Source: Ginglymostoma cirratum
Lineage: Eukaryota
NCBI GenBank assembly: GCA_024137785.1
Contig: JAHRHZ010000043.1
Coordinates: forward strand, 27,041,729 to 27,105,728
Length of the DNA stretch: 64,000 nt
Reading direction: 5' to 3'
Of this stretch, positions 1 to 48,465 are shown one piece after another (positions within the stretch are counted from its first letter, which is position 1; the number at the start of each line of letters is the position of its first letter). The notes under the pieces are model-generated. The model did no database searches. It was not told the origin of the DNA and worked only from the letters and a program-made list of their open reading frames with translations. The position numbers were made by a program, and so were the translations under genes.

Positions 1-357
1 TCTCACCTATCCCCTCCTCCCACCTCAAGCCCCACCCCCATCTCCTATCTACTAACATCATCCCGCCCCCTTGACCTGTCCGTCCTCCCTGGACTGACCT
101 ATCTCCTCCCTACCCCCCTACCTACACTCACCTTTACTGGCTCCATTCCCGCCTCTTCGACTTGTCTGCCTCCTCTCCACCTATCCTCTCCTCTATCCAT
201 CCTCTATCTGCCTCCCCCTCTCTCCCTATTTATTTCAGAACCCTCTTCCCCTCCTCCATTTCTGATGAAGGGTCTAGGCCTGAAACGTCAAGCTTTCCTG
301 CTCCTATGCTGCTGCTTGGCCTGCTGCGTTCATCCAGCCCCACACCTTGTTATCTCC
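1..357 (+). mobile_element. Penelope-like element (PLE) 3' end / pseudo-LTR fragment with hammerhead-like core, in the last intron of WDR18
   Basis: CT-rich segment, then CTGATGAAGGGTCTAGGCCTGAAACGTC (262-289) and tail GCTGCTTGGCCTGCTGCGTTCATCCAGC...TTGTTATCTC; near-identical copies at 9828-10120(-), 14260-14548, 23362-23459 and 32814-32913. Confidence 0.7.
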
Positions 358-403
358 AAATTTGTACTCAGTTGTTCAGATCGTTTTTTACTTTTTTATG
401 CAG

Positions 404-532
404 CATATGCTGGGAGATGGCGAGAACACAAAAATGAGAGTGGCTGAGCTGGAAGACGAAGTGAAGACATTGAAGAAAATCAATAGAGATTTGTATGATT
501 TTTCAGTGCAAGTTCTGACCAAACAGACATAA
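404..532 (+). CDS. WDR18: WD repeat-containing protein 18, last coding exon (C-terminal coiled coil)
   Basis: Pyrimidine tract plus CAG acceptor at 401-403. Reads HMLGDGENTKMRVAELEDEVKTLKKINRDLYDFSVQVLTKQT*, matching the vertebrate WDR18 C-terminus as recalled (RVTELEDEVRNLRKINRDLFDFS). A GRIN3-type gene downstream fits known synteny. Confidence 0.9.
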   Translation, partial: HMLGDGENTKMRVAELEDEVKTLKKINRDLYDFSVQVLTKQT

Positions 533-1767
533 GTGAAGAAAAGAGAAATACTGCAAATTCTGAAGCACCCTGTGAAAGGTTTCTGTTGGTATTGTAACAA
601 TACATTTTATTAGCCTTTATATAATGAACTGGCATATTTAAACATTTCCAATTGTGGTCCCACTTATGCATCTGTTTATCTGATTTGTCAGAGGTGTTTA
701 TGCTCGTGTTTCTTCTTATTTACACATAGTCACATCTATTTAAGTCAGGTTTTTCTTTAACTGCTTTTAAGCTGTAATTGTTGGCCTGTTAACAATCTTG
801 ATTCCATACACATGGGTCCAATTTGCCAGATTCATAAAACATTTGGATTGGGGGACCCAGTTGATACCTGGATCTTCCTGGTGATTTTTTTTATTTGGAG
901 AGGATATTGCTTTCACCTTTGTTTGGATTGTCATTTTCAGAATCAGTTTGTAAATATAATAGCACTGTACATATGAATTCCACATGTGGCCTCTTGAACC
1001 CAGTTTGTACTTCTAAGTTTTCTCCATAGGTTTGTTCTGTTTGAAGCTTATGAACTTGAAGACTCTGAAAGGTCTGTTTGCCCATCACCTAAGAGGGTTT
1101 AAGATCTGTTATCTATAAAGGAAACTTTAAATCTTGTCTGTGGCCAGAGGCTCCATGATACACACGTTATCTCTTATAGTCAGAAAGTTTGGACATTCAA
1201 GTGTTAAAGTAATAATTCCAAATTCTCTGCAGTTCTTGAAGTATTTGGTATCTCTTACTCCATTTCTCCTGGTCAGTCCTCTGTCCTCTTGAGAGTTAAA
1301 ATGTTGTATGTGGGTCATCCTGGAATTCATATTGGGTTTATCCTGACTCTTGTGGTTTCCCCTCTTCCTGTGGGAGATTGCCATTTACTTGACTACTTTT
1401 CCACTTTGTTGTAATTGTAATCAGGAACACAGTGTGGGAAAATCACTGGCATAGACCCACGTCCCATTTTGGGCATTCCAGTGTGTGATCATCAACCAAG
1501 ACAACAATTGGGGTTGCAAAGTCGATGCAGTTACTGGAGTAACTGATTTGATTCTGTGATACAAGTCACACATTTTTGGCTTATGTTGTTATAATTTTTA
1601 TTGTTATTTATGTCAATCTGACTGTGGTTTGATTGACAGGAGCATTTAGAATCCCAGCCCCTGTCATGGTATATTTGCATTCTACCCTGTGCCTCATATT
1701 TGAGTAGTCTATTCTGTCTTGTGTTTGTGGGAACTTTGTACATATCTGGAGCATTTGACATTTTTAA

Positions 1768-1773
1768 AATAAA
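1768..1773 (+). terminator. Candidate polyadenylation signal of WDR18
   Basis: First clear AATAAA I found downstream of the stop, followed by T-rich sequence. Confidence 0.45.
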
Positions 1774-4305
1774 TGTTTTGCAGTAAATCTGATCTTTTTA
1801 ATCTGCAGTTATTTTAAGTTAAATTCAGCATAAAATTGCCCAGAGCGCAATGTCTGTATTAGGTTTTACTACTGGGATTGTTATCATTTTTCCTATTGCT
1901 GTAGAAATATTAACTGAATCTTACAGCAAAATTTAAAGTTCAGTATTATAAGAGGAAAAGGATTTATTTTAAAAGTTTCCACCATCTACAGAGGTAACTA
2001 AGTCAAGAACAAGTCTAATTAGGCAAATATACTTTCAAATAGCATTGAACAAAATCCTTCACATCAGACCAGTGTGGAAGGTCACGATTTACAAAATAGT
2101 TGACAGATAAACACAGCAGATTCAAAAATTGTTGGGCAGCTGTCAGCAGTGCAAAACTAAGTGAAAATACTGTGCTTGAGGAAAAGTAATCAGCAGTATT
2201 TATGAATGAGGTAGCAAAACCTAATGCTTATGGCTATGTAAGGAGCAGAAAGGGAGACTGACTACCCTTACGGAGATTAGAGATTTAGGCCAACTATTCA
2301 GCTGTGGTAGAATGCATGTGTTTAAATCTAGATATATTTAATCTAATACATGAAAATGGATGATAACAAAAGAAAACATAAATGCTATGTAGAAGTGACA
2401 GAATCTCTTTCTGCTCAGAATCTAAGTATCAAGTTGGTGTTAAATTCTTATTATGTAAATAATGCTGTGGTATGTTTCTGAGGTTTTTAATTCTCCACAG
2501 TTGAGTAGGCAACTAATAACTGTCTGGGGTCACAAGTGAAGATTACCTCTTTATTTCTAGCACCCATAAGACAGAACCTCATCAAAAAGATAGCAACTTC
2601 AGCAGAAATCGCAGGATATGGGAAACATTTGATGCTCTCAATTAATATTATGGGATTACATTTAAAGTACAAACTAATCAATTTGCTGGGGGAACCAGGA
2701 AGCTGAATTGACTAGTGTGGTTCAGAATAATACCAACTGCACAGGTTCAATTCTTTTTCTGGTTAAGATAGACTTGGTACCTGCATCTCTGCCCTGCCTG
2801 AGTGGAAGGCAATGACAAACTGCCAAGAACAACAGCCCAGGATGGTGCATTAGTGGACATGAGCCAAAGGACCTGCCTGAGGCAGAGGAATTGTGGAATG
2901 GAATTGAATTGCTCTACTGTACATATCCAGTAGTTGGATGTACACTGCTGCACAATAAACCAACATTGATGCAATCGGCGAGGACAATATCGCAGCAACA
3001 AAATAAATGGAAATTGTAAAAATGTGTGGAAAATATTCAAGTCTGGTTGCATCAAAGAGAATAGTTATTGTTTCAGACTGATTACCTTTTTAAGAACAGA
3101 ACGAGCAACCCTCTTATGAACTTCCCTGGTCACAATTCTGGTTTAACCAACACAAGTGTACCTTGTGGAAATGCCTGTAATATAGAACCGACCTAGAGTT
3201 GCAAAAAAGAAAATGGATAAATATTGCTCTCCTGGCACTTTAAGCAACTTCCTATTTAAGGCAGACTGGTGGGAATGCCATCCTGTTTCTAATTTGCACC
3301 TACCTAATCTGGAAATGCTTAATGCCAATACTGGGCATTAACTGGTGGACCCATTCCAGTTGTCAAACTCCATGAGTACAGAAAACCATCCAATGTTTTT
3401 TTAACTCAGTTTCTAGAATTCTGCTGCAGAGTAGATTATTTATATTTGAGTTTTTACAGTACAGATCATGAAATTGATTATAAGCCAATCAAGGTAGAAC
3501 TGGACTAATGTGTCCTGCTGATTGGATTTTTATTTTTAATATTTTTCAAAAGCTAATCCTTTTAGATAAACCACTGCTGTGAGACTTTACTTGACACATT
3601 TTGTTTTTAACTGAATATTTGTCTTGTATTGGGTAAGGTTTAACCCTAACTCTAAACTTTATGGAACATTAACAGTACGTTGCAGTTGGTACAAGGATGT
3701 TGCAATAATTCTTGGGCCATTGCTGGGTGTCTCATTTTTATGAAATACATTATGATTTACGCCTTCTTCCTAAAGCATAAAGTATTGTTGTTGAGCATCT
3801 CTCATAACCAATGATCCAGTCATATTCAATTGCCCACTGTAGCAATTCTGCTTTTCCAGTTCCTGTGAAGTAGTTCGCTCTGTTACCAGGGTCATCCAGA
3901 GACAGAGTGAAAAGGATAAATGACATCCAAAGTATCTTTTGTATTTTGTGTAAAGCAGCACTCAGATCAGTTTCGATTAGAATTGAGGCAGAGAAAAGGT
4001 AAAGAATTTTAAAGCATAAGGTTGATGGTGTGCAGTTGAATACACAAAGGTGAATTCAAACGTTGGATTGGCTATGACCTTTCATAATGTGGTGACTGAT
4101 TAGTGGAAATTTCTCAGAATACATTTCTTTTTCTGACTGTGCTTTGTATTCACAGCACATTGCTGTTTGCAAATGAAAAGAAAAGGCATTAAGTGGTTTT
4201 AAAACTGGCTGTTCGACTTAGTTTTTGATCAGAGCCATGGATTGTGCAGATGCTGTGAAGTTTCTGCACTAGATAATGGAAGATTACATGTAAAGCCAGA
4301 TTTCT

Positions 4306-5060
4306 GATCCAAGATGGTGGCAGAGTAGGGTTCCTGTGCTGGAGCTCATCTGCTCTGACCACTTTTTTTGTTTTCCCACCATCTTTCTTTCTTTCTTACT
4401 TGCTTATTTACCTTGACCTAATCTTGGACAGCATCGGCAGTGGTGAGAGCTCAACACACGGATCTCAAGTGGGCCCAGGGAGCGGACCTCAAGCCAGCAT
4501 ACCCTGGACCTTAAGTGGGCCCAGCGTGCGGGAGAGTGAGCCCCTACTTACTTTTCCAGAGTAAGCGCAGGATCTGGAATCGGTGGCTGCTTCATTGGCA
4601 GAGGCGACATCGGTGAGGCCCAGTGGCAAGAGATGGCATTTGAGGATCAGTGACTTTTGTTGGTTGGTCCAGCGCTGGCAGCAGCAGAATGGCATCATGG
4701 CAACATCGATAAGGTGGAGCCAGCTGCAAGAGGCACGAGTCTAATGTTGGGATGGTCTGGTGCAGGAGGCGGTGAGGCTGTGGTGGAGGAGTATTGGCCC
4801 AGTAGCAAAGATGGCACCTGAGGATCAGTGACTTCAATGTTAGTTGTGTCTGGTGTAGACAGAGGCAGAGGATGGTGGCGCAGGCATCGTCAAGAGTAAT
4901 GAGCTGATTCAGGACTGATGGACTCTCTTCAAGCTCCATCTTTTTTTCCTTATTCTGAAATTGTTCAAAATGATGCCATTTCATGGCAACAAAGAAAGCT
5001 TTTCACAGAATTTTTTTGTATTCCTACTGTAAAATATATGCAACAAAATCAAAATCAAAA
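4306..5060 (+). mobile_element. Non-autonomous, internally deleted LINE-derived element (Rex/Babar- or L2-like ends)
   Basis: Starts GATCCAAGATGG; GC-rich body with internal direct repeats; ends CTTTTCAC...(CAAAAT)n, like the tail of the LINE fragment at 30550-30932. Confidence 0.45.
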
Positions 5061-6485: not shown

Positions 6486-6712
6486 GGGGCTCTTTGTGGT
6501 GGTAATGTATGGTCCTTTAAGCTAGGAGGCCCAGGTTTGAGTCCCACCTGTTCCAGGGTATATAATATCGATTAGAAAATATCTACAACAGAATTGGGGG
6601 CTCTTGTGGTGCAAGAGTAGTGCACCTATCTCTGAGCTAGGAGGCTTGGGTTCAAGACCCACTTGCTCCAGATGTAATAACATCTCTGAACAGGTTGATC
6701 AGAAAAATAGCT
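6486..6712 (+). mobile_element. Tandem pair of short tRNA-derived SINE units
   Basis: Two ~110 bp units starting GGGGCTCT(T)TGTGGTG at 6486 and 6597, each with AGCTAGGAGGC and a B-box-like GGTTTGAGTCCC / GGTTCAAGACCC. Confidence 0.55.
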
Positions 6713-7889: not shown

Positions 7890-8167
7890 TTTTAAGAGTA
7901 TGGAGGAGGCAGCTTAAAGGGGATTTGAGGAAATAAATGTTTTCACCCAAAGAATGGTGGATATCTGGAACTCACTGTATGAAAGAGTAGTGGAGGCAGA
8001 AACCCTCAAGACATTGAAGAACTATTTAGACGAGCGTTAGAAATGCCATAGTGTAAAGGCTACAGGCCAAATACCAGAAATTGGCAGTAGAGTAGAAGAA
8101 TATTTGATGCTTGGGCATGATGGGCTAAAGTGTCTTGTTCTGTGCTGTAAAATCTCTGACTATGACT
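7890..8167 (+). mobile_element. CR1 LINE 3' end fragment
   Basis: TTTTCACCCAAAGAATGGTG...TGGAACTCACTG...GATGGGCTAAA and CTATGACT tail, homologous to the 3' end of the CR1 at 43480-43715. Confidence 0.7.
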
Positions 8168-9827: not shown

Positions 9828-10120
9828 GATAACAAGGTGTGGAGCTGGATGAACACAGCAGGCCAGGCAGCATTAGAGGAGCAGGAAAACTGACGCTTCG
9901 GGTCGCGACCATTTTTCAGAAATGCGGAGGGGGAGGGGAGCTCAGAAATAAATAGAGGGGTGGTGGGGCTGGGGAAGGTAGGTGGCATGGTGATAGGTGA
10001 GTGCATGTAGGCAGTGGTCAGGACTGATCAGTGAGGTGGGAGTGGCAGATAGGTGAGAGATAAGATGAACAGGTTGTGTCAGGGCAAGGAGACGGGGATA
10101 AGAAGGAGGGTTGGTCAAGG
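9828..10120 (-). mobile_element. PLE pseudo-LTR fragment (same family as 1-357)
   Basis: Reverse complement of the 1-357 repeat; degenerate core CTGAAAAATGGTCGCGACCCGAAGCGTC. Confidence 0.7.
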
Positions 10121-12910: not shown

Positions 12911-12917
12911 TCTGTAA

Positions 12918-13514: not shown

Positions 13515-16500
13515 TGGATGGAGTGCTGGCTGCAAAGAGTAAGCAGCTGAGAGTTGCGGTAAGTATGAGAGTTTCAGGAAGTCAGGGAGGGGGGCCTTGC
13601 TGTGTCTTGTTGTCCTTGCCCTAATTCCACAGGTCCACTGGGGACAGAAGCAGACCCGATATTACATTCAGAAAATGAGTGAGACCAATGCGAGCGGTTG
13701 ATTAGCAATTAAGCTCTGGCGGATATTTCCAAACTGTTATTTTGTAAGTCTTTGTTTAAGTAAGGGTATGGACTTATTTGGTTCATTTATATATTTTTAT
13801 CAAAGTCTTCCAAAGTTTTTAATCTTTAAAGGATTCAGTCAAAAAAAGCTGGTTGTTAATGAGGCGAAGGTAGCAGGCAGTGCAGTGGTATACTCCTCCT
13901 GTCAGATTTGGAAGATTAAGGAGCAGTCGAGTGTCCCTCGTGATTACATCTACAGGAAGTGTGTCTGGCTGGAGCTTCTCTCAGACTACATGGATCAATT
14001 GGAATGGCAGCTGGGTGCACTGAGGAGCAAAGATTGTGATAGATAGTAGCTTTAGGGAGATGGTCACACCGCAGATTCGGTCAAGTTGATAGGTGACCAC
14101 CAGGAGAGGTAGGCAGGTAGTGCAGGAGTGTCCTGTGGCTATCCCCCTCTCAAACAAGTATACCAGTTTGGAGATAGTAGGAACTGCAGATACTGGAGAA
14201 TCTGAGATAACAAGGTGTAGAGCTGGATGAACACAGCAGGGATTCTGTTTTGGTTGTTATTGCTAACCTCATCCCGCCCCCTTGACCTGTCTGTCCTCCC
14301 TGGACTGACCTATCTCCTCCCTAACTCCCCACCTACACTCACCTTTACTGGCTCCATCCCCACCTCTTTGACCTGTCTGTCTCCTCTCCACCTATCTTCT
14401 CCTCTATCCATCTTCTATTCGCCTCCCCCTCTCTCCCTATTTATTTCAGAACCCCCTTCCCCTCCCCCATTTCTGAAAAAGGGTCTAGGCCTGAAACGTC
14501 AGCCTTCCTCCTGCTCTGATGCTGTGTTCATCCAGCTCTACACCTTGTTATACCAGTTTGGATACTGTTTTGGGGGAGGGCCTCTCAGGGAAAATTATCC
14601 TTAGCAGCCAGATCTGTAGCATCATGACTGGCTCTGTTGTAAATCAGGTTATGGCAAAGTCCAAGCAAATGTGCTATTGGACCCTGTGGGCATTTCAGTG
14701 GCTGTGAGTGAGACTCCAGGATGGTGTGTTGCCTCCTTGGTGCCAGGGGTCAAGAACAGCATAGAGCAGTTGCAACAAATTCTCAGAGGGGAGTACGAGC
14801 AGCCAGAGGTCATTGTACACATTGGTATCAATGACACAGGTAGAAAAAGAGATGAGGTCCTGCAGAGTGAATATAGGGAGTTGGCAGGACATTAAAAATC
14901 AGGACTTAAGGACAGTAATCTCTGTATTACTCCCAGTGCCATGTGCTAGTGAAACTAGGAATAGGAAGACAAAGCATAATGAATGTGTGGCTGAGGATCT
15001 GGTGCAGGGGGCAGGGATTCAGATTTTTGGATCATAGGGATCTCTCCTAGGAGCTGAGGTGACCTGTACAAGAGGGATGAGTTGCACCTGAACTGCAAGG
15101 AGACCAATATCCTGGCAGGGAGATTTACTAGAGCTACTTGGGAAGATTGAAACTAGTCTGGCAGGGGGTTGGGACCCTAAGCAGTAGTGACACAAGAGAG
15201 AACATTGAGGCTGGTACAGAAGTTAAAGAGAGCAAGTTAAATAAACAAGGCAGGCAAGAGCATGATGGGGAACGAGGAAAGACTGAAGAATTAAACTGCA
15301 TTTATTTCAATGCAAGAGGCCTGACAGGTAAGGCAGATGAACTCAGGGTATGGATGGGTATATGGGATTGAGATAGCTATTACAGAAACATGGCTGAGGG
15401 AGGAACAAGACTGGCAACTCAATGTTCTGGGGAAATAGATGCATTGGGAAGGACAGAAGGGGAGGCAGAGAGGAAGGGAAGTGGTGTTTTTGATTAGGAA
15501 AAACATCTTGGCAGTACACAGAGAGGATATTCCTGAAGGATGCTCCCGTGAAGCTATATGGGTGGAACTGAGAAATAAGAAGGGGTGATCACTTTGATGG
15601 GATTATACTACAGCACCATTCCCCCCCAATAGTCAGGGGGAAATTGAGGAGCAAATATGTAGGGAGATCACAGATAACTGTAAGAATAATAGGTTTGTAA
15701 TAGTAAGGGATTTTAACTTCCCAAACGTAGACTGGGACTACCATAGTGTTAAGGGCTTGGATGGGGAGAATTTGTTAAGTGCATTCAGGAAAAATTTCTC
15801 AATCAATATGTAGGTGGCCCTACTAGAGAAGGGGCAAAACTCAGCCCCCACTTGGGAAATAAGGCAGGGCAGGTGACTGAGGTGTTAGAGGGGGAGCACT
15901 TTGGGACCAGTGACCATAATTCCATTAGTTTTAAAATACTTATGGAAAAGGATAGGCCTGGTCCACAAGATAAAGTTCTAAATTGCGGTAAGGCCAGTTT
16001 GGATGGTATTAGACAGGAACTTTCAAAAGTCGACTGGGGGAGGAACATCTGGAAAGTGGGAGGATTTCAAAAGGAGATAAGGAGAGTTCAGGGTCAGCAA
16101 GGTTTCTGTTAGTGTGAAGGGCAAGGCTGGCAGGAGTAGAGAACACTGAAGACTAGAGATATTGAGGTTCTGATCAAGAAAAAGAAGGAGGCATATGTCA
16201 GGTGTAGGCAGCTAGGATCAAGTGAGTCCCTTGAGGAGGATGGGGGTATAGGAGAACATTTAAGAGGGAAATCAGGAAGGCAAAAGGGGGACATGGATAG
16301 CTTTAGCAGATAAGTTAAAAGGAGAATCTAAAGAGATTCTACAAGTATACTAAGGGCAAAAGAGTAACTGGGAAGAGAACAGCATCCCTTAAAGATCTAT
16401 AAGGTCATCTATGTGTGGAGCCATAGGAGGTGGCTGAGATCCTAAACATATATTTTTTGTCAGTATTTAGCTTGGAGAAAGAAGTAGAAGCTAGGGAACT

Positions 16501-23361: not shown

Positions 23362-23459
23362 TTTTCTGAAGAAGGGTCCTGACCCGAAAAGTCAGCTTTC
23401 CTGCTGCTCTGATGCTGCCTGGCCTGCTGTGTTCCTCCAGCTCCACACTGTGTTATCTG
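23362..23459 (+). mobile_element. Short PLE pseudo-LTR fragment starting at the hammerhead-like core
   Basis: CTGAAGAAGGGTCCTGACCCGAAAAGTC (23366-23393) followed by the family tail. Confidence 0.7.
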
Positions 23460-29184: not shown

Positions 29185-30435
29185 TATAGGCTCGGTACTG
29201 CAGGGATCACCAATCCCAGCTTCACAATATGTATTAATGATTTAATTGAGGGAACTAAATACAATATCTCCAAATTTGCAGATGACACAAAGCTGGTTGT
29301 GAGGGTGAACTGGGAGGAGGATACAGAGATGTTTTAGTATGATTTGGTGAAGTTGAGTGAGTGAGCAAATGCATGGCAATTGCAGTATTATGTGGATGAA
29401 TGTAAGGTTATCTACGTTGGTAGCAAAAACAGGAAGGCAGATTATTATCTGAACAGCTATAAACTGAGAGAGGAGAATGTGCAACAAGTCCAGCATGTCC
29501 TTGTACACCAGTTACTGAAGGTAAGCATGCAGACAACAAAGGAGGTAAATGGTATGTTTCTCATGGTATATCTTCACATAGAGAGAAGATTTCAGTACAG
29601 GAGAAGGATGCCTTGCTGGAATTATACAGGGTCTTGGTGACACCACATCTGCAATATTGCAATAAAAAACAAAGAAATGTGGATGCTGGAAATCAGAAAT
29701 TGCTGGAAAAACTCAGCAGGCCTGAAAACATCTGTGGAGAGAAAGTGGAGTTAATATTTTGTATTCAGTGACCCTTCTTCAGAACATCTACAGAACCATT
29801 CTAAAGTTGGGTCACTGGACCCGAAACATTAACTCTGCTTTCTCTCTATGGATGCTGCCAGACCTGTTGAGTGTTTCCAGCAATTTCTGATTTTGTTTCT
29901 GCAATATTGTGTGCCGTTATGGTCTCCTTATCCAAGAAAGGATGTCCTTACTGCAGAAGGAGTGTAACGAAGGTTTATCGCACTGATTCCTGGGATGGTG
30001 AGATATAGGGGAAGGTCAAATCAGTTTGGATTATATTCACTGGAGTTCAGAAGAATGAGGGAGGATCTCACAGAATTCTAACAGGACAAGATAGGGTAGA
30101 TGCAGGAAGAATGTTTCCAATGGTGCAGGAGTCCAGAGTCAGGGGCCACGGTCTAAGGATATGCAACAAATTTTTTAAGACTGAGATGAGGAAAAATTTC
30201 TTCAACCAGAGAATGGTGAGCCTGTGGAATCGCTACCACAGAAAGCAGTTATAGAAGGCATTATATGATTTCAAGAAGGAGTTCAATATAGCTAAAGGGA
30301 TCAAAAGACATGAGAGAATAGCAGGAACAGGCTATCAAGTTGACTGATCAGCCATGATCATAATGAATAGTGGAACAGGCTTGAAGGGGCTGAATGATCT
30401 ACTGCTGCTCCTATTTTCTATGTTTCTGTGTTTCT
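29185..30435 (+). mobile_element. Decayed CR1 LINE 3' third (RT C-terminus plus tail)
   Basis: ISKFADDTKL and WQLQYYVDECKVIYVG motifs; tail TTTTCTATGTTTCTGTGTTTCTAAG. Confidence 0.85.
29660..29897. mobile_element. Fold-back PLE mini-element inserted in CR1 with 12 bp TSD
   Basis: TCTGCAATATTG at 29648-29659 and 29898-29909; inverted arms about 29690-29784 / 29799-29892, each with a partly decayed hammerhead-like core. Confidence 0.85.
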
Positions 30436-30932: not shown

Positions 30933-32662
30933 CCACTGAACCTGTTGTTCAAATTCAAGAGCTAAGGTTCCTCCATTTCTACCTGCTGGATCCTCATATT
31001 AACCTGACTTTCAGTCACATCTCCTGTCCTTGAGCATCGACCAACTCAAAAATCCTACCTGACTTCAGGGATGCGACCATCTCCTGGAACAACGTATCCA
31101 AGTCAATCTCCCTCCCTTGCCCCATAATTTCTGTGACTCTGACTTTGGCTCAGTAACTGTAAGCTGACATTGTTCAAGCTACAAGCATTTACTGCAGATA
31201 TGATTGTCTGGGACTGCAATACATTCTACAAATTCCATATGTTGTAGTCATGATACAGCACCATCCCTGACATGCCTGTTTATGTACTTCTACTGTCTCT
31301 TAACTCCAACCAAAAAGATTCTAACCCTTCCTGGACATCCTTTATCTGGCACGGTAGTATCATTAAAACCACCTTTCTTATTCCTTTTCTTCCTTATCTT
31401 TCCCTAACACCTTGTATCCAGGAATATTTAGTACACCACCCTGCCATTTTTTTAGGCCAGTTTTCTGCTATCACTGACTTATTGTGGCTACTTTAGCTTG
31501 CAGAAATCTTTTGTTTTGCCATTCTTTTTGTGTTTGCATACATGCATTTATTCTAAAACAAATTGTAATTAATGCTCTAATTGCACATTAAATGTTATAA
31601 CAAGATCACTGGATATAATCTCAAGTAGGACGCAAACTGTAAGGTGTCAAATATGGTTGATATGTGACAGGATCGAAGCCTCCAAAGAATTGATTGTTTT
31701 TATTAGTGCCAAACTCCTTGTTCTGCCTCATAAGCCAGTGATGTTAAGTGGCAGTGTACTTTCATTTTGTTAACTGCTCAGACTTTTCCCACACTGATAC
31801 AAACTCTACAAATCTTACCATGCCACAACTAAGACATTCTAAATTCTTGCCATTTACCACTTTCTGACATTTTATCACCTTTCTGCTTTATCTCATCCGC
31901 CAGGACAAAAATATAATTCTAAATAATACTTAAATAATCCTGGTAGTCTGTTATACGTAAAAGGCAAAAGGATTTAACATTGATTTGCAAATATATTCCT
32001 TTGCCAACTTCTGCTGAGTTATAGGTTCCACAGACATTGACCACACTGTCCTCCACTGAAGTGCTCATCTTTCATGTGGGAGCTAAGAGGGTGATGGTTC
32101 TCCCAAGGAAGCATCTCAGATCACTCCAATTCCAATTTCATTCAATTGTCACATGTACATATTTCTCTTGGTATGAATCGCTGGTCATGTAAAGACCACT
32201 TTTACTTTTGGACTGTGGACCAAAAATTGGAAAAGATACCACTTTAAACCAAGGAGACTGTGGAAGTAGATACTTGAAGTTTTTAGAACAGGTTTGTACT
32301 GGAACACAGTGTGAGTTAAAGCTACAGTATTGCCTTATTTGAGCAGTGGGGGAGAATACTAGACACAATGGTGCCACTTGTGTATTCTAGGAAATCCTGT
32401 TCACATTTGATTGGTTTTTAAATTGACAAAAAACTTTCCTGGTAGCTGCTGTCACTCAATATTTCCCTGTAAACAATTCTCATTACAAATTCCCTTGGCG
32501 AAAGGCAAAAGAGGAGGGGGAGAAAACATCTTTAAAGAAACTGACAGGACAGGTCCTCAGCCAGTGAATTCAAGACCGAGAATTGGTAGATCCAGAACCT
32601 TGCATCGTTGGTAAAGGATTGGAAGGATTCAAGAGAAAACCAAATAAAATAATTCATCTGTG

Positions 32663-32920
32663 ATTCAGAAAATTGTAAGAACTGCCAATGATGGAGTCAG
32701 AGACAACATAATATGGAGCTGGAGGAACACAGCAGCCCAGGCAGCATCAGAGGAGCCGGAATGTTGATGCTTTGGGTCAGGACCCTTCTTCAGAAATGGC
32801 CCCATTTCTTGCCCCATTTCTGATGAAGGGTCCCAACCCGAAACGCTAACTTTTCTGCTCCTTTGATGCTGCCTGGCCTGCTGTGTTCCTCCAGCTCTAT
32901 ACTGTGCTGTCTCATCTCTG
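32663..32920. mobile_element. Fold-back PLE mini-element with 11 bp TSD
   Basis: ATTCATCTGTG at 32652-32662 and 32921-32931; ~100 bp inverted arms 32700-32799 / 32814-32913; cores CTGATGA...GAAAC on + (32820-32844) and CTGAAGA on - (32787-32793). Confidence 0.85.
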
Positions 32921-34094
32921 ATTCATCTGTGTCTGTGATCTGAGATCTGTGCTTCTTTAACTTTTTTCCTTTCCTCACCCCTAACACTTGTATCATGTCT
33001 TGTCACTTTTTGTGTCTGTTTGTCTGTGTTCAGGAATTTTTTAAAAAAGATACAGTTTAAATTATAAAATTATTAAATTAACTAATCATTTTTCTTTTCC
33101 ATTGTCTAAAAACAGTTTGATGATAATTTTTAGTTGTTTTCTTGTTAATAAAAATCCTGTTTGTGCATATTCTTTTAACCTGATTTAAAGAGTTAGGTAA
33201 AATCAATAGTTGAATTAAATTTTAACATCTATGGCAACATCAGGAATAATGAGTCTTGACTTCTGGTCCATTACTGCAGACAGTCATGATCGTTATCTGC
33301 TTTGGGAACCATGTTTGATAGCCTCATCACCCAAATCCCAGGCCATTGATAGTCAAGCCACTTCTAACATTACATTAGGAGCTGAAGTTATTTTTTTTTT
33401 CCCAATTTTCTTGAACGTGACTGGAAAACTTCTAAAAACACAAAGTGTTTGAAAATTCCACACCACAGTTTTATGGTATTCCTGTTTTCAGGTCAGAAGG
33501 GCCATTGAACATTTTAAAGTTGTTATTTGGATTCAGTTGGTATTTATAAACAACATGTTTTCTAGTTAGCAAAGTTTGAGATTTGTTAGGGAGGGGGTAC
33601 GCAGAAGGAGCACTTTACAATGTTGACCTTTGTTTAAAATAAGGTTGATGGTGTACCCTCATTCGTTATTACTTCAGCTAAATGCACTAGCACGTAACTG
33701 CACCTTATGTGAATTACAGAATCTTCTCATCAAACAGTTCTAGTGAATTGCAATCGATCTACACATTTTATTCTTTGGACCTTTTGTGCAGAAAAATTAG
33801 GTTCGAGACTCCTGAAGAAAATGCTTGTGTCTGATCAATAATGCATTTACACATGGAATGGGATTTATTTCTTGAGGGTGAAATGCAGCAAAGTGAGGTG
33901 CATTTTTAAATCAAAACTCCAAGATGCCCAAGCTCTGAGGTAGCTTTTGTTCTCACATCTTCACACATTTTGCACAGACAAAAGCATCAAGTGGAGGAAG
34001 GAAACTTGGGTTGATTATCTATCCGACTGTCTGTAACATGAACATTCCTATTTGTTAAAGTCTGACAAGTACATGCTAATTGATAATTGATGAT

Positions 34095-36710: not shown

Positions 36711-38384
36711 CTGACATAGATGAGTCAGTTAGGAAAACATGACACAATTGGAAAGTTAAATTCCTGACTTCAGAAAAAAAAGACTCTGATTTCGTATATC
36801 AAATTTTGCATGGTGAATGAGAACCTCACAACTAAGAGACAAGAGACCTACTTGCGTGCATTAATGTCTCATGTATCTGCAAATATTTATTAACCCATGT
36901 GCCAGAGAGAAACAATACAGTGACAATTTCCGACCGGACCACTTTGTTCAGGGGAGCCAGGTACCAATCTCCTGCATTCGAGCAGAGGATACCTTGGGGC
37001 TCTCAGCTTGCTTTCTTAGCACTCATTCCCTTTGTGCCAACTTGGATGCTCACAGCATCTCTGCCTGGCCTTTTTGCACAATGACGTCTCATTCAAAACT
37101 TAAAGGCTAATAGTTCCTCTGTCTTGCATTGCTGTTTAGCGCAGACACAAAGCCAGGCTGCTTGTCATTGTTAGCAAAAATGATCAGTCAAGGGGTGGAC
37201 GTGACACCACCTTACATCAATCTCACACCTGCACCATGTGCTAGCAGCTTGTGCAGCAAACATACTGCATGTACCTTGACTAAATGGCCAATTTTCAAAA
37301 GTCTAGGGGAAGTAGTCCTCAGCCAAACCAAGGGAGACTCATGTCAGTCAAGGGGTCCTGCTACAGTAAGTCAAGGGCAGTATTGATGTCAGTCCAAGGT
37401 TTTCGACATAGTCATTCAGCAGTTTGGGGCAGTTAATGCTACATAATCTATATCACTGTGGGTCAGAGAATGGGCCATGGTTAGTCCTTCAGGTCCAGTG
37501 TAACCAGTCTGGGGATTCCTAGTAAGTCAGTTGGGGAGTTGTTCAGAGATCAGTCAGGTGTCCAGTCACTCACTAGTTGGGGCTGTGTGTCCAAGTCAGT
37601 CAGGGAGGTGGGTGACAGTTAGTCCTGAGGGTCTGCTCACCAAATGTCAAGGGTGACTGAGCCATTGCTATGGAACGAAAGCTGGGTAAGTCAGCTGCAT
37701 GGATTGGACGCAGAATGCTGAGATGCAGATGGACAATAATTGCGAAGGGTGGCAATTAACATTTGAAGGGTGGAAGACATTGGTTCTATTGGGACAGCAT
37801 CATTGATAGTCATAACTACCCTGGTTTTGACAGGGGAACAGTATAGCATGATGGCTGGCATAGTTAAACTTTAGGGCAGGGCTCAGGGTAATCTGGGGGA
37901 ATGAAAAGTGAAATGAAAGAGTTGTGTGAGAACGTGTGGAAGCTCTGTACTGATGGGTCAAAAAGGAGTACAAGAAAGAAAAGAACACAGAGGTTTGTGG
38001 AGGGGAGCTCTTGATTAACAGATGAGACTGCAACTCATTCTGCCAAGTGACCTGTGGTACCTTCAATCTTCATGGGAATCGCAAATGTGCCATGGAACTG
38101 GAAAATGGCTGTGACCACACCCAACACGGGCAGAATAAGTAAGTTTTTTTCTGACTGAACTCGTGGGCTTTACTTGTCAGTGATGTGAGACCTTTGAAGG
38201 AGCAATTGCATTAATCAGACATTTTCACAGAACAGGTTGAAGACATCTGCAACAATAGAACCCTACGTGTGATTTGTATGCAGTGTATAATAGTGTGGGA
38301 TATAAATCCTGGTCACAGGCAATCTTTTGATGACCTGCAGAGACTTGTTATTTGACACTCCACTCACATCATTTGTATGATCTT

Positions 38385-38565
38385 TTGCTCTCTCTGCCCT
38401 TGATCTCTCTGCCTGTAAATTCTGTGCCTGTATGCATCTCTCTCACTTCACCTGAGGGGGTTACGCTCTGAAAGCTTGTGATTTCAAATAAATCTGTTGG
38501 AATATAACCTGGTGTCATGCAACTTCTGACTTTGTCCACCCCAGTCCAAGACCAGCACCTCCCTA
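38385..38565 (+). mobile_element. PLE pseudo-LTR fragment, second family
   Basis: CAC-CTGAGGG...CGCTCT-GAAAGCTT-GTG (about 38449-38480), then AATAAATCTGTTGG..TATAACCTGGTGTC. Confidence 0.5.
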
Positions 38566-40082
38566 TCATGAGAAGCAGTCTTGACCATATTATCAGTCAT
38601 TAGAAATTGATCACAGTCATCCCCGTGAAGCAGGAATAATCACAGGTGATCTTAAAGTGAACCATTATTCACAAAGACAATCCAACAACTCATAGGCTGC
38701 TCTAGGCACAGAGCTGATTTTCACTCATCTTGAATTGAAAGTATTCAAAAACATGATTTTATAAGAAATGCTGTCTTTCCTGGGTGGTGTGACAGGTTGG
38801 GGTGGGAAAGCAAATTTCCAGCAATCCATTGCATTTACAATCTCCTGCTTCACTCACATGGAATGACAGGTGTTGCATACATTGGAATAAGGTCTTTGAG
38901 TCAAAGGTGCATGTTGTTGTCACTGTGGCCATGATGCTATGAAGATGCAGAGAAATTGAGGAGGAGCAGATGTGCCAGCAAGCCCAGGACCAGCAGCAAC
39001 ATCCAGTGGCTGCCAAGTAGCTTCTGCTTGAAGCAGTCACAACTGATAGTCCCTCAGGATGCAGAGGGGCTGCAGGAGGCCTAGAATCCATTGTCCTCAG
39101 TGTTATTTTCTCAAGGTGAATGAGGTTCATTGCCATCTCAGGCTGCGGACATCCCTGGACATAGTTACTGAACCATGTCATCTGCTGGAGTGGGACCTGC
39201 GATCTGAAGGAGTGACTGTCCATTCTATCCCAGTGACCCTCAAGATGAAAGCTGCTCTAAACTTTTATGCAACTGGCTGCTTCTAAGGATCCACTGGGGA
39301 CCTGTGTGGGATCTCTCAATCCTCAACCCACAAATGTATCCAGGCTGTTATCAATGCAACTTGTGCCACACCACATCGCGGCATTTTGTTTCCCTGTAAT
39401 GAGGTCAGTTCTGTAGCCCAGGTGGCAGGCTTTGCTGACGTAGCTGGTTTCCCCCAGATGCAAGGCACGGTAGACTGTATACACGTTGCATTGAGAGCAC
39501 CACATCATTATGCAACAAACTTCGTCCATAGTGCAGGTTTCCATTCCAGCAATGTGCAAGTCATTGGTAATCATTGATACCGCATCTTAGAAGTTTGTGC
39601 CAGGTACGCTGTAAGCTGCCATACTGGCTACATCCTTTTGAACTCTTATGTTCCTGATTCATTTCAAGAGCCAGATGTTCTGCACTGATGGTTTTTCGGA
39701 GACAAAGGCTCTTTTCTGCAAACATGACTGATGGGTCTGTTAAGCAACTTTCTGACTGAGGCCAACCATCGATACAATGCAGCCCATTCTTTCAGTCGTT
39801 TCAGCGGCGGGAGTCCGGAAGGAGGCGCGAGGGCAGCCTGGGAAGGTAAGCTTCTCCTTTAAAAACTTACCTCGTGAATAGGCGGAGTGCGCGTCGAGCA
39901 GGAGCAGACACGGGACGGTTGAGTAAGTGAGGTAATATATTTGGGCGGTTGCTTTACCCGAAACACTACTTAGGTAGTGTCTCCCACCCATCCTCCTCCT
40001 CTAACCAAAAAGGTTCTGAGCGCCGATTTGGTAAGTTACTAGTGTTTTTTTCCCAATAGTCTGTTTTTTAGAATTCAGAACA

Positions 40083-41012: not shown

Positions 41013-41082
41013 ACTAGTTCAGCTGGGGGATGGGAACCTGACTTGTCGCTCCAGTGTACAGGAAGTTGAGAGTAGTGAGGTC

Positions 41083-43619
41083 ATGAATAAGGTTTCAAGG
41101 TCGCAGGAGTGTACCAGCAGGCAGGAAAGTGGTTTGAAGTGTGTCTACTTCAACACCAGGAGCATCCGGAATAAGGTGGGTGACCTTGCAGCATGGGTTA
41201 GTACCTGGGACTTTGATGTTGTGGCCATTTCGGAGACATGGATAGAGCAGGGACAGGAATGGATGCTGCAGGTTCCGGGGTTTAGGTGTTTCAGTAAGAT
41301 CAGGGAAGGTGGTAAAAGAGGGGGAGGTGTGGCATTGTTAGTCAAGGACAGTATTATGGTGGTAGATAGGACGTTTGATGAGGACTCGTCTACTGAGGTA
41401 GTATGGGCTGAGGTTAGAAACAGGAAAGGAGAGGTCACCCTGTTGGGAGTTTTCTATAGGCCTCCGAATAGTTCCAGGGATGTAGAGGAAAGGATAGCAA
41501 AGATGATTCTGGATAGGAGCGAAAGGAACAGGGTAGTTGTTATGGGGGACTTTAACTTTCCAAATATTGACTGGAAACACTATAGTTCAAGTACTTTAGA
41601 TGGGTCAGTTTTTGTCCAGTGTGTGCAGGAGGGTTTCCTGACACAGTATGTAGATAGGCCAACAAGAGGCGATGCCACATTGGATTTGGTACTGGGTAAT
41701 GAACCAGGCCAGGTGTTAGATTTGAAGGTAGGTGAGCACTTTGGTGATAGTGACCACAATTCGGTCATGTTTACTTTAGCGATGGAAAGGGATAGGTATA
41801 TACTGCAGGGCAAGAGTTATAGCTGGGGGAAAGGCAATTATGAGGCGATTAGGCAAGACTTAGGATGCATAGGATGGGGAAGGAAACTGGAGGGGCTGGG
41901 CACAATTGGAATGTGGAGCTTGTTCAAGGAACAGCTACTGCGTGTCCTTGATAAGTATGTACCTGTCAGGCAGGGAGGAAATGGTCGAGCGAGGGAACTG
42001 TGGCTTACTAAAGAAGTTGAATCTCTTGTCAAGAGGAAGAAGGAGGCTTATGTAAAGATGAAGGGCGCTTGAGAGTTACAAGTTAGCCAGGAAGGACCTA
42101 AAGAGAGAGCTAAGAAGAGCCAGGAGGGGACATGAGAAGTCTTTGGCAGGTAGGATCAAGGAAAATCCTAAAGCTTTCTATAGGTATGTCAGGAATAAAA
42201 GAATGACTAGAGTAAGATTAGGGCCAGTCAAGGACAGTAGTGGGAAGTTGTGCGTGGAGTCCGAAGAGATAGGAGAGGCGCTAAATGAGTATTTTTCATC
42301 AGTATTCACACATGAAAAAGACAGTGTTGTCGAGGAGAATACTGAGATACAGACTATTAGACGAGACAGGATTGAGGTTCATAAGGAGGAGGTGTTAGCA
42401 ATCCTGGAAAGTCTGAGAATAGATAAGTCCCCTGGGCCGGATGGGATCTATCCTAGGATTCTCTGGGAAGCTAAGGAGGAGATTGCAGAGCCTTTGGCTT
42501 TGATCTTTATGTCAGTTGGATGAGGGTAAAGCGGTTGATGTGGTGTATATGGATTTCAATAAAGCATTTGATAAGGTTCCCCATGGTAGGCTACTGCAGA
42601 AAATTCGGAGGCATGGGATTGAGGGTGATTTAACGGTTTGGATCAGAAATTGGCTAGCTGTAAGAAGACAGAGGGTGGTGGTTGATGGGAAATGTTAACC
42701 CTGGAGTTCAGTTATTAGTGGCGTACCGCAAGGATCTGTTTTGGGGCCACTGATGTTTGTCATTTTTATAAATGACCTGGATGAGGGCGTAGAAGGATGG
42801 GTTAGTAAATTTGCGGATGACACTAAAGTCGGTGGAGTTGTGGATAGTGCGGAAGGATGTTGCAGGTTACAGAGGGACATAGATAAGCTGCAGAGCTGGG
42901 CTGAGAGGTGGCAAATGGAGTTTAATGCGGAAAAGTGTGAGGTGATTCACTTTGGAAGGAGTAACAGGAATACAGAGTACTGGGCTAATGGTAAGATTCT
43001 TGGTAGTGTGGACGAGCAGAGAGATCTCGGTGTCCATGTGCATAGATCCCTGAAAGTTGCCACCCAGGTTGATAGGGTTGTTAAGAAGGCGTACGGTGTG
43101 TTAGGTTTTATTGGTGGAGGGATTGAGTTTCGGAGCCGTGAGGTCATGTTGCAGCTGTACAAAACTCTGGTGCGGCCGCACTTGGAGTATTGCATACAGT
43201 TCTGGTCACCACATTATAGGAAGGATGTGGAAGCATTGGAAAGGGTGCAGAGGAGATTTACCAGGATGTTGCCTGCTTTGGACGGAAGGTCTTATGAGGA
43301 AAGGCTGAGGGACTTGAGGCTACTTTCGTTAGAGAGAAGAAGGTTAAGAGGTGACTTAATAGAGACATACAAGATGATCAGAGGATTAGATAGGGTGGAC
43401 AGTGAGAGCCTTTTTCCTTGGATGGTGACGGCTAGTACAAGGGGACATAGCTTTAAGTTGAGGGGTGATAGATATAGGACAGATGTCAGAGGTAGATTCT
43501 TTACTGAGAGAGTAGTCAGGGCATGGAATGCCTTGCCTGCAGCAGTTGTCGACTCGCCAACTTTAAGGGCATTTAAATGGTCGTTGGATAAACATACGGA
43601 TGATAATGGAATAGTGTAG
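41083..43619 (+). pseudogene. CR1 ORF2: APE endonuclease and reverse transcriptase, disrupted
   Basis: ORFs 41083-42072 (ISETW, FYRPP, GDFN, SDHN), 42143-42523, 42516-42698 and 42741-43619 (KFADDTK); segment VVPLFKKG...IEFFE is missing at about 42514. Confidence 0.92.
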
Positions 43620-44744: not shown

Positions 44745-46085
44745 AGACAAAAATATAGAAAATGTTAGAAATTCTCAGTAGGTGTCAATGGAAAAATGAA
44801 AAGTTAGCACTGATGATCTTTCAGTTGAACTGGAAAAATATTGAGACAAGTTTAATTGAGTACAGAGAGAGAGAAATAGAGAGAGAAGCAAAGACCAAAA
44901 AAGAATGACCTGTGAAAAGGTGGAAGGCAGGACAGATTAAATGATAAAAGACAGTGATGGTGCAAGGCAAAAAGAGATAGACAGCAAAAAGATCAGAAGG
45001 TCGATCTGGAGGAGAATAAGGGAAAAGCAGACTCATTTTCAACAGCTACTGTCCAAACAAAAAAGAGGTTATGATCTGTAATTGATTAACTCATTGTTGA
45101 GTCCAAAGGCTGTTGAGTAATTAATTGAAAGTTGCAGTACTGTGATTAAGCTAAAATTGTTCTTTAGTGCAGAGGTGAAGCTGCAGTTATGTTTGTGGAC
45201 GGAAGAGTATTGTTCTTTAAAGCAGTTATCCAATCTGCTTTTGGTTTCCTCTTTGCATTGTGACCAACAACTGCTGGGGTCAAAATCCTGGAACTCCCTC
45301 CTTAAAAGCATTGTGGGTCTACTGACAGAAAATGGACTGCAATGATTCAAGAAGGCAATTTATCCCCATTTTCTCAGGATAAGTAAAGGTTGGGTAATAA
45401 ATGCTGACTCAGCCAATGATGCCCACATCCCATCGGTGAATTAAAAAGCAATTATTCCAAATTGGAGGGAAAGAATACAAATAAAACACTGTTTTGCATG
45501 GAAGGAGTATTTAAGATCCTGAGAATGGAGGTGAGAAGAGGGCTTGTGTTTGCAAGGGAAGTTGGTAAGGGAAGGGATGTTAGGATTGAAGATGAACCAA
45601 AATGTCCTGGAAGGAAGGGATCCTTAGAATGCTGAAAATGAAATGGACAAGAATATTATTTTGATAGTAGCCTCTCTGTCACTGATCTGTTCCAATCAAA
45701 CTAAATGAACAACACATCACCTTTCAATATTGGCACATCACAGATTCCAAAATAACTTTGACAATTTCAAATCAAAATCCATAATTTTCAGGTAGCAGCT
45801 GTTGGTGAAGATTCTGCTTTTGTCATTTATACGTCCTCTTGGCACATCTTTTAATCATTTGTTTGTTCCCTTAAAATCCCTTTTGGCCTAACACTATCAT
45901 CTCTTTCGTTATCTTACTTCAATTACTCTTATTGAAGATCTTCCCTTTTGTTTATTCCTTCCTTTCCTGTTTCTCTAATCTTTTTCCAGTTCTGATGAAA
46001 AGATCACAAAAAACCTGCTGTATGAATTATTTTCCTCTCTCAACGATACTGCCTGGCCTACTGAGTACTTCCAGCATTTTCTGCT
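44745..46085. mobile_element. Old, larger fold-back PLE (minus arm about 44745-45260, plus arm about 45740-46085) with a LINE tail inserted at 45267-45450
   Basis: Arms are loose reverse complements (AAAATGTTAGAAATTCTCAGTAGG / CCTACTGAGTACTTCCAGCATTTT); CAGTTCTGATGA at about 45987. Confidence 0.5.
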
Positions 46086-46089
46086 TTGG

Positions 46090-46840
46090 AGCTGTTGGTT
46101 GGTTCACCGAGCTGACTGGTTTTCATGCAAACGTTTGTCTCCCTTCTAGATGACATCATCAGTGTTGCGTAGCCTCCGTTGAAGCGCTGTTGTTCTGTCC
46201 TGCTCTGAATTTGTATGGTCTGCTTTGTCATGGTGGACAGTCTTGTTTCCGGTTTTGTACCATAGCGGTATGTAGATGGGGTCCATTTCAACATGTTTGT
46301 TAATTGCATCAGCGGCTGAAAACCAGGCCTCCAGGAATTCTCGTGCTTGTCTTTGTTTCGCTTGTCCTAGTACTGTAACTTTGTCCCAGTCACATTGATG
46401 CCCTTCTACGTCAGAGTGTACTGAAATGAGGGAGAGTGGTCATGCTGTTTTGCCGCGAGTTGGTGTTCATGTATCCTGGTGGCAAGTTTCCTACCCATCT
46501 GTCCTATGTAGTGTTTCTCGCTGCATGGTATTTTATATATCACATTTGACCTGCTCATTGTGGGTTTTCAACCACCAATGCAATTAACAAACATGTTGAA
46601 ATAGACCCCATCTACATTCCACTGCGGTACAAAACCGGAAACAAGACTGCCCGCCATGACAGACTGGTCCATATAAGTTCAGAGTGGGACAGAATACCAG
46701 CACTTCAACGCAGGCTACACAGCACTGAGATGCCACCTAGAAAGGAGATAAAATGTTTGCATGAAAACCAGTCAGTTCGGCAAACCAACCAATAAGTCCA
46801 ACCGCAACCCGAGCTACAGATCATCATTAAAACATTAAAT
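46090..46840. mobile_element. Penelope element remnant: GIY-YIG endonuclease fragment (- strand, about 46147-46560) with inverted pseudo-LTR copy
   Basis: Minus-strand translation NVIYKIPCSEKHYIGQMGRKLATRIHEH...DWDKVTVLGQAKQRQAREFLEAWFS; ~220 bp inverted arms 46092-46310 / 46578-46795. Confidence 0.9.
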
Positions 46841-48289
46841 TTTCTGGTTTTATTCCAGATTTCCAGAATTTTGTATTTGCATTATTTAATGGACTATGTC
46901 TGGAAAATAAATGCCTCCTGAGTAAATGTGTGCATTCAAGACTTGCGTTTTGGGTCCAATTTTTTTAATGTTCCTAGTATTGCTACTGTTCCTTTATACT
47001 CTCCTTTGAAATATGGGGCAATGAATTGAGTATGACACTTGAAGTGTGATAAATAACTGTGTTGGTCAGGAAATGTGTTCTACACCTACCATTTATATTA
47101 CAAATAGATGAGTACATCTTTCAGCAAAAAGGCAGATCTGCCTTCTCTATCGGACAAATAAGGCTTCAAGATCAAACAAGTCTCATTGTCCCTCCTTAAC
47201 TGTCCTCTGTGATCTTGAAAATCTGCCTCAGTTTTATAATGTAGATTATTTCTAATCCAAGAATCAAATCACAATTGAATTGAATATTGATGGGCCCTGA
47301 TCGGTCACAAAAGAGCTTGAATGGGAGATTCACAGCTGTTCTTTGTTAATATGTGACATTGCTACAATAATCAGTAAGTATGTTACAGTGCAGTAATGCC
47401 TGCTCATCAAGGTAAGGAATGTTATTGTTGGGATTTCAGAAACTGAGTGTCAGTAACATGCACAAACATATCAGGTTAAATAAACATGGTGTAAAACTCC
47501 TCCTCAATCACATCACCAGAATTTTTGCTACTTTATATTTTTACCTATGCTGATAGTCTATCTACTTAATTGCAGTCCATCACCATTGATATTATTCTGG
47601 TAAATCTGTGCATCCTCTACAAGGACTTGACACACTAATTACCACTACTTGTAAATGTCTGGCTCCCATCGATGAATACTAATCTTTTTCCTTAAGGTTA
47701 TTTGGCACTTGTATGTGACATGCCAAATTTTAACTCTCAGTACGTGACTAATGCTTGTGTGCTGCAATTCTTTATTCCATGTAGATCTGCTATAAAATTG
47801 CCAAAGGTATTTTTTTGATGTGCTATCTTTGAGGACAACTGCAGCATACCATATGATAAGCTTGTGGTTTTAAATGACAAAGTGTAATTGTTATTGAGTG
47901 AATATGAGATAATGTCAGGAAGCAGGTTTCTATTTCTTTCTCTTTAAGTTGTTTTGATAAGGACAATAATGTATACAGGCATTCTGATTCTTTGCATTCA
48001 ACGTGTTTTGATTTGCTGCAAGAAATGTGCTTCCCATATGACAATATTCTTTTGTTTAAACCAAAAGTGTGACATAGAAATGTGTCTGCCATATATATGC
48101 TGCAATTAACAAGAAGTGTCATGTAAGTATTTAATATTGCTGGGGGAAAAAAGGCATGCACTTTAAGTGTTCGTCTTGTGTTCATCAGAACAGATGCAAA
48201 AATGCCGGATGTCAAATGCAGCAACAACTTACACTGCATGGGAAAAGCATGCTGGCTCGTTGTCACATCACTTCTGATTTATCATGGCA

Positions 48290-48465
48290 TTGATTTGGAA
48301 ACCAATCAGAAGTGACTGGCCAAACAATCATTAGTCTTTGCACATGCATTTAAATTGTTACTCCCTTTGCAATTTGGCATTCTTGCATCTGTCCTGATAA
48401 ATTCAAAATGAAAAGCTTCAATAATATAGCTCTTTCTTCACCAATATTCAAGTTCTGTACTACCG
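48290..48465 (+). mobile_element. Probable PLE pseudo-LTR fragment, further family
   Basis: TGTC-CTGATAA-ATTCAAAAT-GAAAAGCTTC-AATA (48390-48423), a decayed hammerhead-like core with palindromic AAGCTT. Confidence 0.4.

Follow-up and report, generated by a model that had tools for sequence, protein, structure and literature searches.

Minimal type I hammerhead motifs (min-HHRs) were described in 2014 by Cervera and De la Pena in the pseudo-long terminal repeats (pLTRs) of metazoan Penelope-like elements (PLEs) (PMC4209133). These motifs have no helix III of their own and follow the consensus NNN CUGANGAH G..C GAAAN-palindrome-NUH NNN (PMC4209133, Fig. S3); the Schistosoma monomer was not cut, and dimers and trimers were cut weakly (PMC4209133). 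In the hammerhead reaction, G12 has been proposed as the base and the 2'-OH of G8 as the acid (PMC6155905). With the Anolis Poseidon element PAc in vitro, the tail of an insertion was the gap between two reverse transcriptase (RT) start sites on uncleaved RNA, the hammerhead was cut only with the PLE protein, and hammerhead mutants did not block insertion (PMC11167929). Here, we analyzed a 64,000-nt stretch of the Ginglymostoma cirratum genome (contig JAHRHZ010000043.1, positions 27,041,729 to 27,105,728, forward strand; hereafter the window), which an initial annotation had proposed to hold several families of PLE-type min-HHRs, designated A to E. The window has the base composition of animal-type DNA (41% GC). 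Its motifs are very probably scattered and mostly mutated min-HHR copies, likely 3'-end fragments of at least three PLE lineages (A and B together, C, D, and possibly E), that are probably inert in place.

Hammerhead motifs of families A and B

The hammerhead layout was present at all nine of the sites named initially, and window self-comparison together with an nhmmer profile search added five motif-bearing copies that had been overlooked (minus strand at 9919, 32793, and 48188; plus strand at 45992 and 51021). In all, 15 motif-bearing copies lie within about 53 kb of the window (Table 1). Most carry core mutations, as had been noted: all of the invariant core bases were kept only at 262 and 23366 (2/15), and the full core was combined with the ACGT palindrome only at 262 (1/15), where the stems are weak. 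A strict pattern of core plus ACGT returned this one site and none in 100 shuffles. A relaxed motif score, designed with the motif already known, reached 6 or more at eight sites, compared to a mean of 0.65 (maximum 2) in 20 shuffles, and seven of the eight were A or B copies. The layout of A and B exceeds chance, and families C, D, and E are supported by other evidence and not by the motif score, by which their copies lie within background (C minus scored 0 and D scored 5, with C plus and E outside the top 40). The remaining high-scoring site, at 28880-28925 on the minus strand (C3 at 28918), scored 7, has no homolog in the window, and is probably due to chance.

Stem II of family A had been given as the 5-bp GGGTC..GRCCY, but because a fifth pair would leave a 2-nt loop, the stem is instead the 4-bp GGGT/RCCY around a 4-nt loop. 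The ACGT palindrome and GTC triplet ascribed to this family hold at 262 and 14473, whereas 23366 reads AAGT and 32820 reads ACGC-T, leaving two of the four named copies. At 262, stem I comprises three pairs (U-A, U-A, and U.G), stem II comprises 4 bp with two G.U pairs, including G10.1.U11.1, and the cut is predicted after 289; this copy is 87% identical to the broken copy at 14473. Stem I of family B is 3-4 bp, with the proposed GTT/AAC pairing exact in the minus-strand copy but not in the plus-strand copy. A and B have in common a GGGT/ACCC stem II and a downstream tail, and their profiles cross-match (for example, B at 29801 to A copies at E about 1e-4). Since stem II and tail are shared and the families cross-match, A and B are related and form one lineage. 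The window thus holds several lineages with a PLE-type motif, but A and B are not independent, and the suggestion that different stems around a shared core represent independent solutions is not supported for this pair.

The majority line of nine A/B copies carries the whole core (CUGANGA, GAAA, and NUH). Stem II is paired in 91.7% of the cells, and stem I has two pairs (U-A, then U-A or U.G), with the third unpaired in six of nine copies. There are 36 differences from the majority, with 28 being transitions and 11 lying at CpG, a pattern such as decay would be expected to leave. In the copy at 262 (230-290, plus strand), the hammerhead is predicted to be blocked by pairing of the motif with upstream TTCAGAA and C/U-rich tracts, which are not conserved in the copy at 9919. 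The A/B pattern was found in none of the viral contigs and none of the prokaryote genomes scanned.

Table 1. Coordinates of hammerhead motifs, insertion units, and associated features in the window
Feature	Position	Strand	Remarks
Family A min-HHR	259..292	+	Sole copy with full core and ACGT palindrome
Family A min-HHR	9889..9922	-	Newly found; G8>A, A15.1>G
Family A min-HHR	14470..14503	+	G8>A; palindrome intact
Family A min-HHR	23363..23396	+	Invariant core intact; palindrome broken (AAGT)
Family A min-HHR	32763..32796	-	Newly found; G12>A, A15.1>G, palindrome broken
Family A min-HHR	32817..32850	+	U16.1>C
Family B min-HHR	29750..29785	-	G12>A; stem II damaged
Family B min-HHR	29798..29833	+	5-bp stem II intact; CUGANGA broken
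B-type min-HHR relic	51017..51054	+	Newly found; core broken
B-type relic	45988..46075	+	Newly found; CTGATGA present, no recognizable stem II or GAAA; family C unit inserted in tail
Decayed B-type tail	52847..52931	+	Outside the 15 copies; profile match E 1.7e-8; 5' core absent
Family C min-HHR	46127..46165	-	CTGATGA intact; one base missing at G12-A15
Family C min-HHR, inverted arm	46722..46760	+	One base missing in CUGANGA; G12>A
C-terminal part of PLE open reading frame	46149..46567	-	GIY-YIG-type segment, two frames; ends inside hammerhead
Family D min-HHR	38448..38481	+	Broken in window copy
Family D repeat fragment	38330..38569	+	Many contigs depart at 38562-38569 into A/T-rich, unlike sequence
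Family E plus arm	48390..48421	+	CTGATAA (G8>A) with GAAA and AAGCTT palindrome; no more than 2 bp in stem II
Family E minus arm	48158..48192	-	Newly found; intact CTGATGA, damaged GAAA/palindrome, no stem II pairing
Family E head-to-head pair	48130..48451		No significant target duplication
Family A insertion unit	14159..14562		Short inverted arm, long left tail; 14-bp perfect duplication at 14159/14549; 0/300 random window pairs as high
Head-to-head family A pair	32654..32925		14 nt between arms; 14-bp duplication (32654/32912), 1 mismatch; 0/300 random pairs as high
Head-to-head family B pair	29648..29909		12-bp perfect duplication (29648/29898); 0/300 random pairs as high
Family C unit	46076..46850		Inverted arms of about 240 bp, 84% identity
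Stop-free frame matching NMDA (N-methyl-D-aspartate) receptor subunit GluN3A	54783..55406	+	E 5e-18; all motifs upstream

Families C, D, and E

Family C had been reported to adjoin a GIY-YIG fragment, and this was confirmed by the end of a PLE open reading frame (ORF) on the minus strand that runs into the hammerhead. The ORF end is 69-77% identical to all four proteins returned, and over 46409-46567 the identity to proteins named from two carpet sharks is 73-77%. Three of the four matched proteins, each a named shark protein, contain RVT_1, and all four show a GIY-YIG match in Pfam that is below threshold (15-21 bits in family C relatives, under the cut-off of 22.6). The RT of family C was seen in these relatives and not in the window, and Pfam detected no PLE domain in the window's own family C frames. 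The second frame had 173 relatives at E<=0.001 in an HMMER search, including one (P0002) with 50% identity over 102 residues; a word-based homolog search with a 97-residue family C fragment found nothing among 86 candidates, whereas the HMMER search did find relatives.

Both family C motifs of the window are broken, with stem II partly paired in the two arms and the described GCA/TGC stem I exact in the plus arm (3 bp) but not in the minus arm. An intact core is nonetheless encoded by relatives. A tail of at least 35 residues follows the domain in 84 of 154 family C relatives, and six of these tails spell [TPAS][DE][DE]..E[TS][SLF], the in-frame peptide of an intact CUGANGA..GAAA-NNU core. The same signature occurred at a mean of 0.15 (maximum 2) in 200 shuffles and was absent from 13,345 upstream residues. 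The tails of the three closest relatives read DVT-xx-G[DN]ET, which, judging from the codons, would be compatible with a GUCAC/GUGAC stem. Family C thus represents the 3' terminus of a PLE ORF, and the motif lies at the 3' end of that ORF. Protein homology ties only this family to PLEs; the assignment of A and B rests on insertion anatomy and that of D and E on the motif and their repeat nature. Pfam analysis of the DNA beside the family A copy at 9919, family D, and family E revealed no PLE domain.

Family D has a single copy in the window, and public contigs matching 38250-38700 numbered 17,387 in run X1, 10,711 in run X11, and 540 in run X14, the last from another organism; summed contig depth was not used as copy number, nor was run X14 used as evidence of expression. 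Contig loose ends at 38465-38471 read CAC CTGAYGA A GGAGC AGY GCTCC (105-184 contigs per row, agreement 0.55-0.62, X1 and X11). Joined to the GAAA-GC-TT-GTG of the window, they give a 4-bp stem I, the full core, a 5-bp GGAGC/GCTCC stem II, and an AGCT palindrome, in agreement with the CAC...GTG stem I and AGCT palindrome proposed for this family. As with A/B, an extra base precedes stem II, which is closed by G10.1-C11.1. Family D is a high-copy repeat. Given 15 copies in about 53 kb, and 17,387 contigs from a single run that match the 451 bp around D, it is plausible, as initially proposed, that the genome holds a large number of ribozyme-like loci, most of them relics. A second and less deeply covered repeat follows D at 38574-38700, and in some contigs 38326 is joined directly to about 38600, as though D had inserted in this repeat. 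Two near-identical, GC-rich, bacterial-looking metagenome loci that matched the D pattern were rejected as chance, as they share no flanks.

A possible family E with an AAGCTT palindrome had also been suggested. The palindrome is present in the plus arm, and an inverted partner was found, with 104 of 147 aligned bases (71%) identical between 48130-48279 and 48304-48451, a value reached by none of 200 random pairs. The core is split at aligned positions, with CTGATGA in one arm and GAAA-AGCTT in the other. As neither of the two old arms has a properly paired stem II, family E was not filed as a min-HHR member, and it is likely, but unproven, that it is a hammerhead relic. An 8-bp candidate target duplication at this pair was rejected, with 30% of random pairs scoring as high, and a scan of prokaryote genomes with the E pattern returned no match.

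Insertion anatomy and alternative readings

Direct duplications of 12-14 bp were found at four of 10 loci tested, and in each case they bracket two outward-pointing arms. Three of these duplications are listed with their statistics in Table 1; that of the family C unit (46076/46839) is 12 bp with one mismatch, and four of 300 random pairs scored as high. The long and short arms extend 98 and 64 nt past the cleavage site in the A pair, 93 and 67 nt in the B pair, and 81 and 42 nt in the C unit, so that in these three measured pairs the difference is 34, 26, and 39 nt, respectively; the family A unit at 14 kb likewise has one long and one short end. For A and B, the PLE hallmarks were found in three units and were absent at 23366, 9919, 51021, and the 52.8-kb relic. 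Taken together, the anatomy of four insertions reproduces the published PLE pattern, in which truncated arms are inverted, the target is duplicated, and one arm has the longer tail. The family C unit sits in the tail of a B-type relic (46076-46850 within 45988-46880), one PLE within another. An apparent inverted pair at 52.7-52.9 kb was dismissed, as 163 of 200 random pairs scored as high.

Palindromes replace helix III in these motifs (ACGT in A and the C minus arm, AGCT in D, and AAGCTT in the E plus arm), with self-duplex energies of -1.7 to -4.3 kcal/mol. Every copy extends beyond the cleavage site, by 42-98 nt where measured, and neighboring motifs in pairs lie on opposite strands with none in same-strand tandem; the loci are therefore probably inert. 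In the four head-to-head pairs, 19-29 of the 28-33 motif bases are predicted to pair outside the motif, mostly in a long arm-to-arm hairpin. Because the paired motifs lie on opposite strands and read-through RNA would bury motif bases, the models make dimer cleavage at these loci unlikely. The hammerhead fold of the copy at 262 was estimated at -0.7 kcal/mol, whereas a competing fold reached -7.4 kcal/mol, and in context the hammerhead stems had pairing probabilities near 0.

The motif of an active element would lie in the pLTR, and the transcript would span two pLTRs, whose palindromes (ACGU in A, B, and C; AGCU in D) could pair into a shared 4-bp helix III. The cut would fall 3' of the NUH triplet and would probably be slow and helped by the element's own protein. 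Nicks made by the RT-endonuclease in the two target strands would be 12-14 bp apart, and copying of the uncleaved RNA would begin downstream of the ribozyme, at two start sites separated by 26-39 nt. An early stop in copying would leave short ends arranged head to head, one with a long tail and the other with a short tail, and the inserted copies would then decay without selection, largely by transitions.

Several observations weigh against reading the motifs as fragments of PLE hammerheads. No target duplication was found at six of the 10 loci tested. No PLE ORF is linked to A, B, D, or E, with tblastn of the 154 family C relatives giving strong PLE-type matches only at C, and no homolog of the family A read-through frame was found among 508 candidates. 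The Rfam covariance-model search for hammerheads had no match at E<=10 in the whole window. The weakness noted earlier for family A stem I is real, at only two to three weak pairs (U-A/U.G), where helix I of PLE min-HHRs is about 3-5 bp, or 2 bp in some variants. A covariation test was run on the A/B stems and was not significant: both-side changes occurred in two of seven pairs among nine decayed copies, and because 32 of 500 shuffles reached this value, covariation within the A/B lineage is not shown. The core-peptide signature is missing from 78 of the 84 protein tails. The loose-end reads of D agree only at 0.55-0.66 and stem from assembled contigs, many of which have T or A at the C11.1-G12 CpG, so that many other D copies are damaged.

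The foremost alternative, which we consider unlikely but deserving of weight, is that the motif is a true hammerhead relative kept in PLEs for protein binding, for template folding, or as a passenger, with cutting never needed. Insertion in vitro was unchanged by core mutations in the anole PLE, for which no RNA-seq ends were found at the cut site (PMC11167929), and Naiads without the motif thrive (PMC8557442). The extension of copies 42-98 nt past the cut site and the barely stable family A stems (-0.7 kcal/mol in the best copy) fit this alternative as well. Against it, the complete catalytic core, the G10.1-C11.1 pair, and the palindrome recur in lineages with unrelated flanks, Schistosoma dimers and trimers do cut, if weakly (PMC4209133), and the anole motif cuts with protein (PMC11167929). 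More doubtful is the reading of A, B, D, and E as retrozyme- or SINE-like non-autonomous elements (SINE, short interspersed nuclear element) that move as ribozyme-cut circles, as opposed to truncated ends of autonomous PLEs. Such elements would account for the lack of an ORF linked to these families in the window, and retrozymes, which are derived from pLTRs, have been found in one chondrichthyan (bioRxiv 10.64898/2026.07.22.740005). However, no tandem array in the window holds a motif, the 5' ends vary, the ends do not lie at the cut site, and the PLE pattern is seen in the head-to-head pairs that have a target duplication and a tail on one side.

We regard it as very improbable that the host has co-opted at least one copy, above all that at 262, as an active ribozyme, for instance in transcripts close to the GluN3-like gene. 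The copy at 262 does have the full core, the palindrome, and a 3-bp stem I, but the identity to its broken relative at 14473 marks it as an ordinary repeat-family member, its G10.1-C11.1 position is a G.U pair, its fold is not favored in context, no intact same-strand partner is present in the window, and the GluN3-like exon is 54 kb away. The least probable alternative is that C, D, and E are chance look-alikes produced by pattern fitting. The background-level scores of their window copies and the lack of stem II in either arm of E would agree with this, but it is refuted for C by relatives that encode an intact core and for D by relatives that read an intact 5' core and stem II, and the E arms hold complementary core halves at aligned positions. 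We therefore favor scattered and mostly mutated min-HHR copies from PLE 3' ends. A further conjecture, to which we give very little credence, is that intact copies in long host transcripts could pair across families or molecules, with ACGU common to A, B, and C and the genome densely seeded with copies, and that shark pre-mRNAs could be cut in this way, with PLE protein perhaps acting as the switch; if true, this would constitute a genome-wide, retroelement-controlled layer of RNA cutting.

Other features of the window include the GluN3A-like frame, which is probably the first coding exon of a GRIN3-type gene; after it comes a tandem tract rich in TGGAG that contains a 10-N gap. A fairly young long interspersed nuclear element (LINE) at 40131-43616 on the plus strand has an SGNH-esterase ORF1 along with pieces of endonuclease and RT, and its RT appears to lack a part; from the esterase, endonuclease, and RT domains we take this LINE (about 40.1-43.6 kb) to be CR1-type. 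Older relatives of it lie at about 14.7-17.5 kb and 35.3-36.2 kb. A tRNA-like sequence at 6608-6670 on the plus strand (26.5 bits, under the Rfam cut-off) is possibly a SINE head. Another dispersed repeat family (68-73% alike), in which no hammerhead was seen, occurs at 12921-13085, 27049-27252, 45272-45447, and 49356-49572.

Comparison with known systems

The insertion units resemble published endonuclease-bearing PLE units in their 5' truncation, inverted pLTR, and 30-40-bp tail, which is often one-ended (PMC3846280, PMC8557442). The target duplications are 8-10 bp in the rotifer examples versus 12-14 bp here (PMC3846280, PMC8557442), and unlike the published units, most units here comprise the last 100-350 bp only. 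Two RT starts, cuts on both strands, an uncleaved template, and a protein-assisted hammerhead have been demonstrated in vitro for PAc of Anolis (PMC11167929) and are deduced here. The non-LTR retrozymes, with a type I hammerhead from pLTRs, include one chondrichthyan case and consist of tandem arrays with a complete motif in consecutive units, an arrangement not seen in this window (bioRxiv 10.64898/2026.07.22.740005).

The closest match is with the min-HHRs of PMC4209133, which likewise have the extra base before stem II and G10.1-C11.1, fall into several families per genome, and occur mostly as single truncated copies and in close opposite-strand pairs. Fig. S3 of that work includes CGU, GCU, and longer palindromes, forms with a 2-bp stem I, and a lamprey motif whose UCAC/GUGA stem I is identical to that of family D; family A, with its stem I of two to three U-A/U.G pairs and 4-bp stem II, lies at the weak end of these forms. 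No cartilaginous fish is named in the Fig. S3 rows and supplement portions covered, and no publication listing shark PLE hammerheads was found in the literature searched, which lay largely outside subscription journals. The density of 15 in about 53 kb looks higher than the 4,000-9,000 per genome of coelacanth and Xenopus, figures obtained with a strict descriptor, whereas relics are included here (PMC4209133). This suggests that shark genomes are very rich in min-HHR relics. With thousands of copies per family, covariation could be tested properly and the RT start sites mapped, and such abundance bears on whether mobility of a PLE depends on cutting by its hammerhead. The published set (PMC4209133) already includes this layout, a diversity of families, pairs on opposite strands, and even the stem I of family D, so that the present work brings little new biology and adds cartilaginous-fish families to the class of motifs described in 2014.

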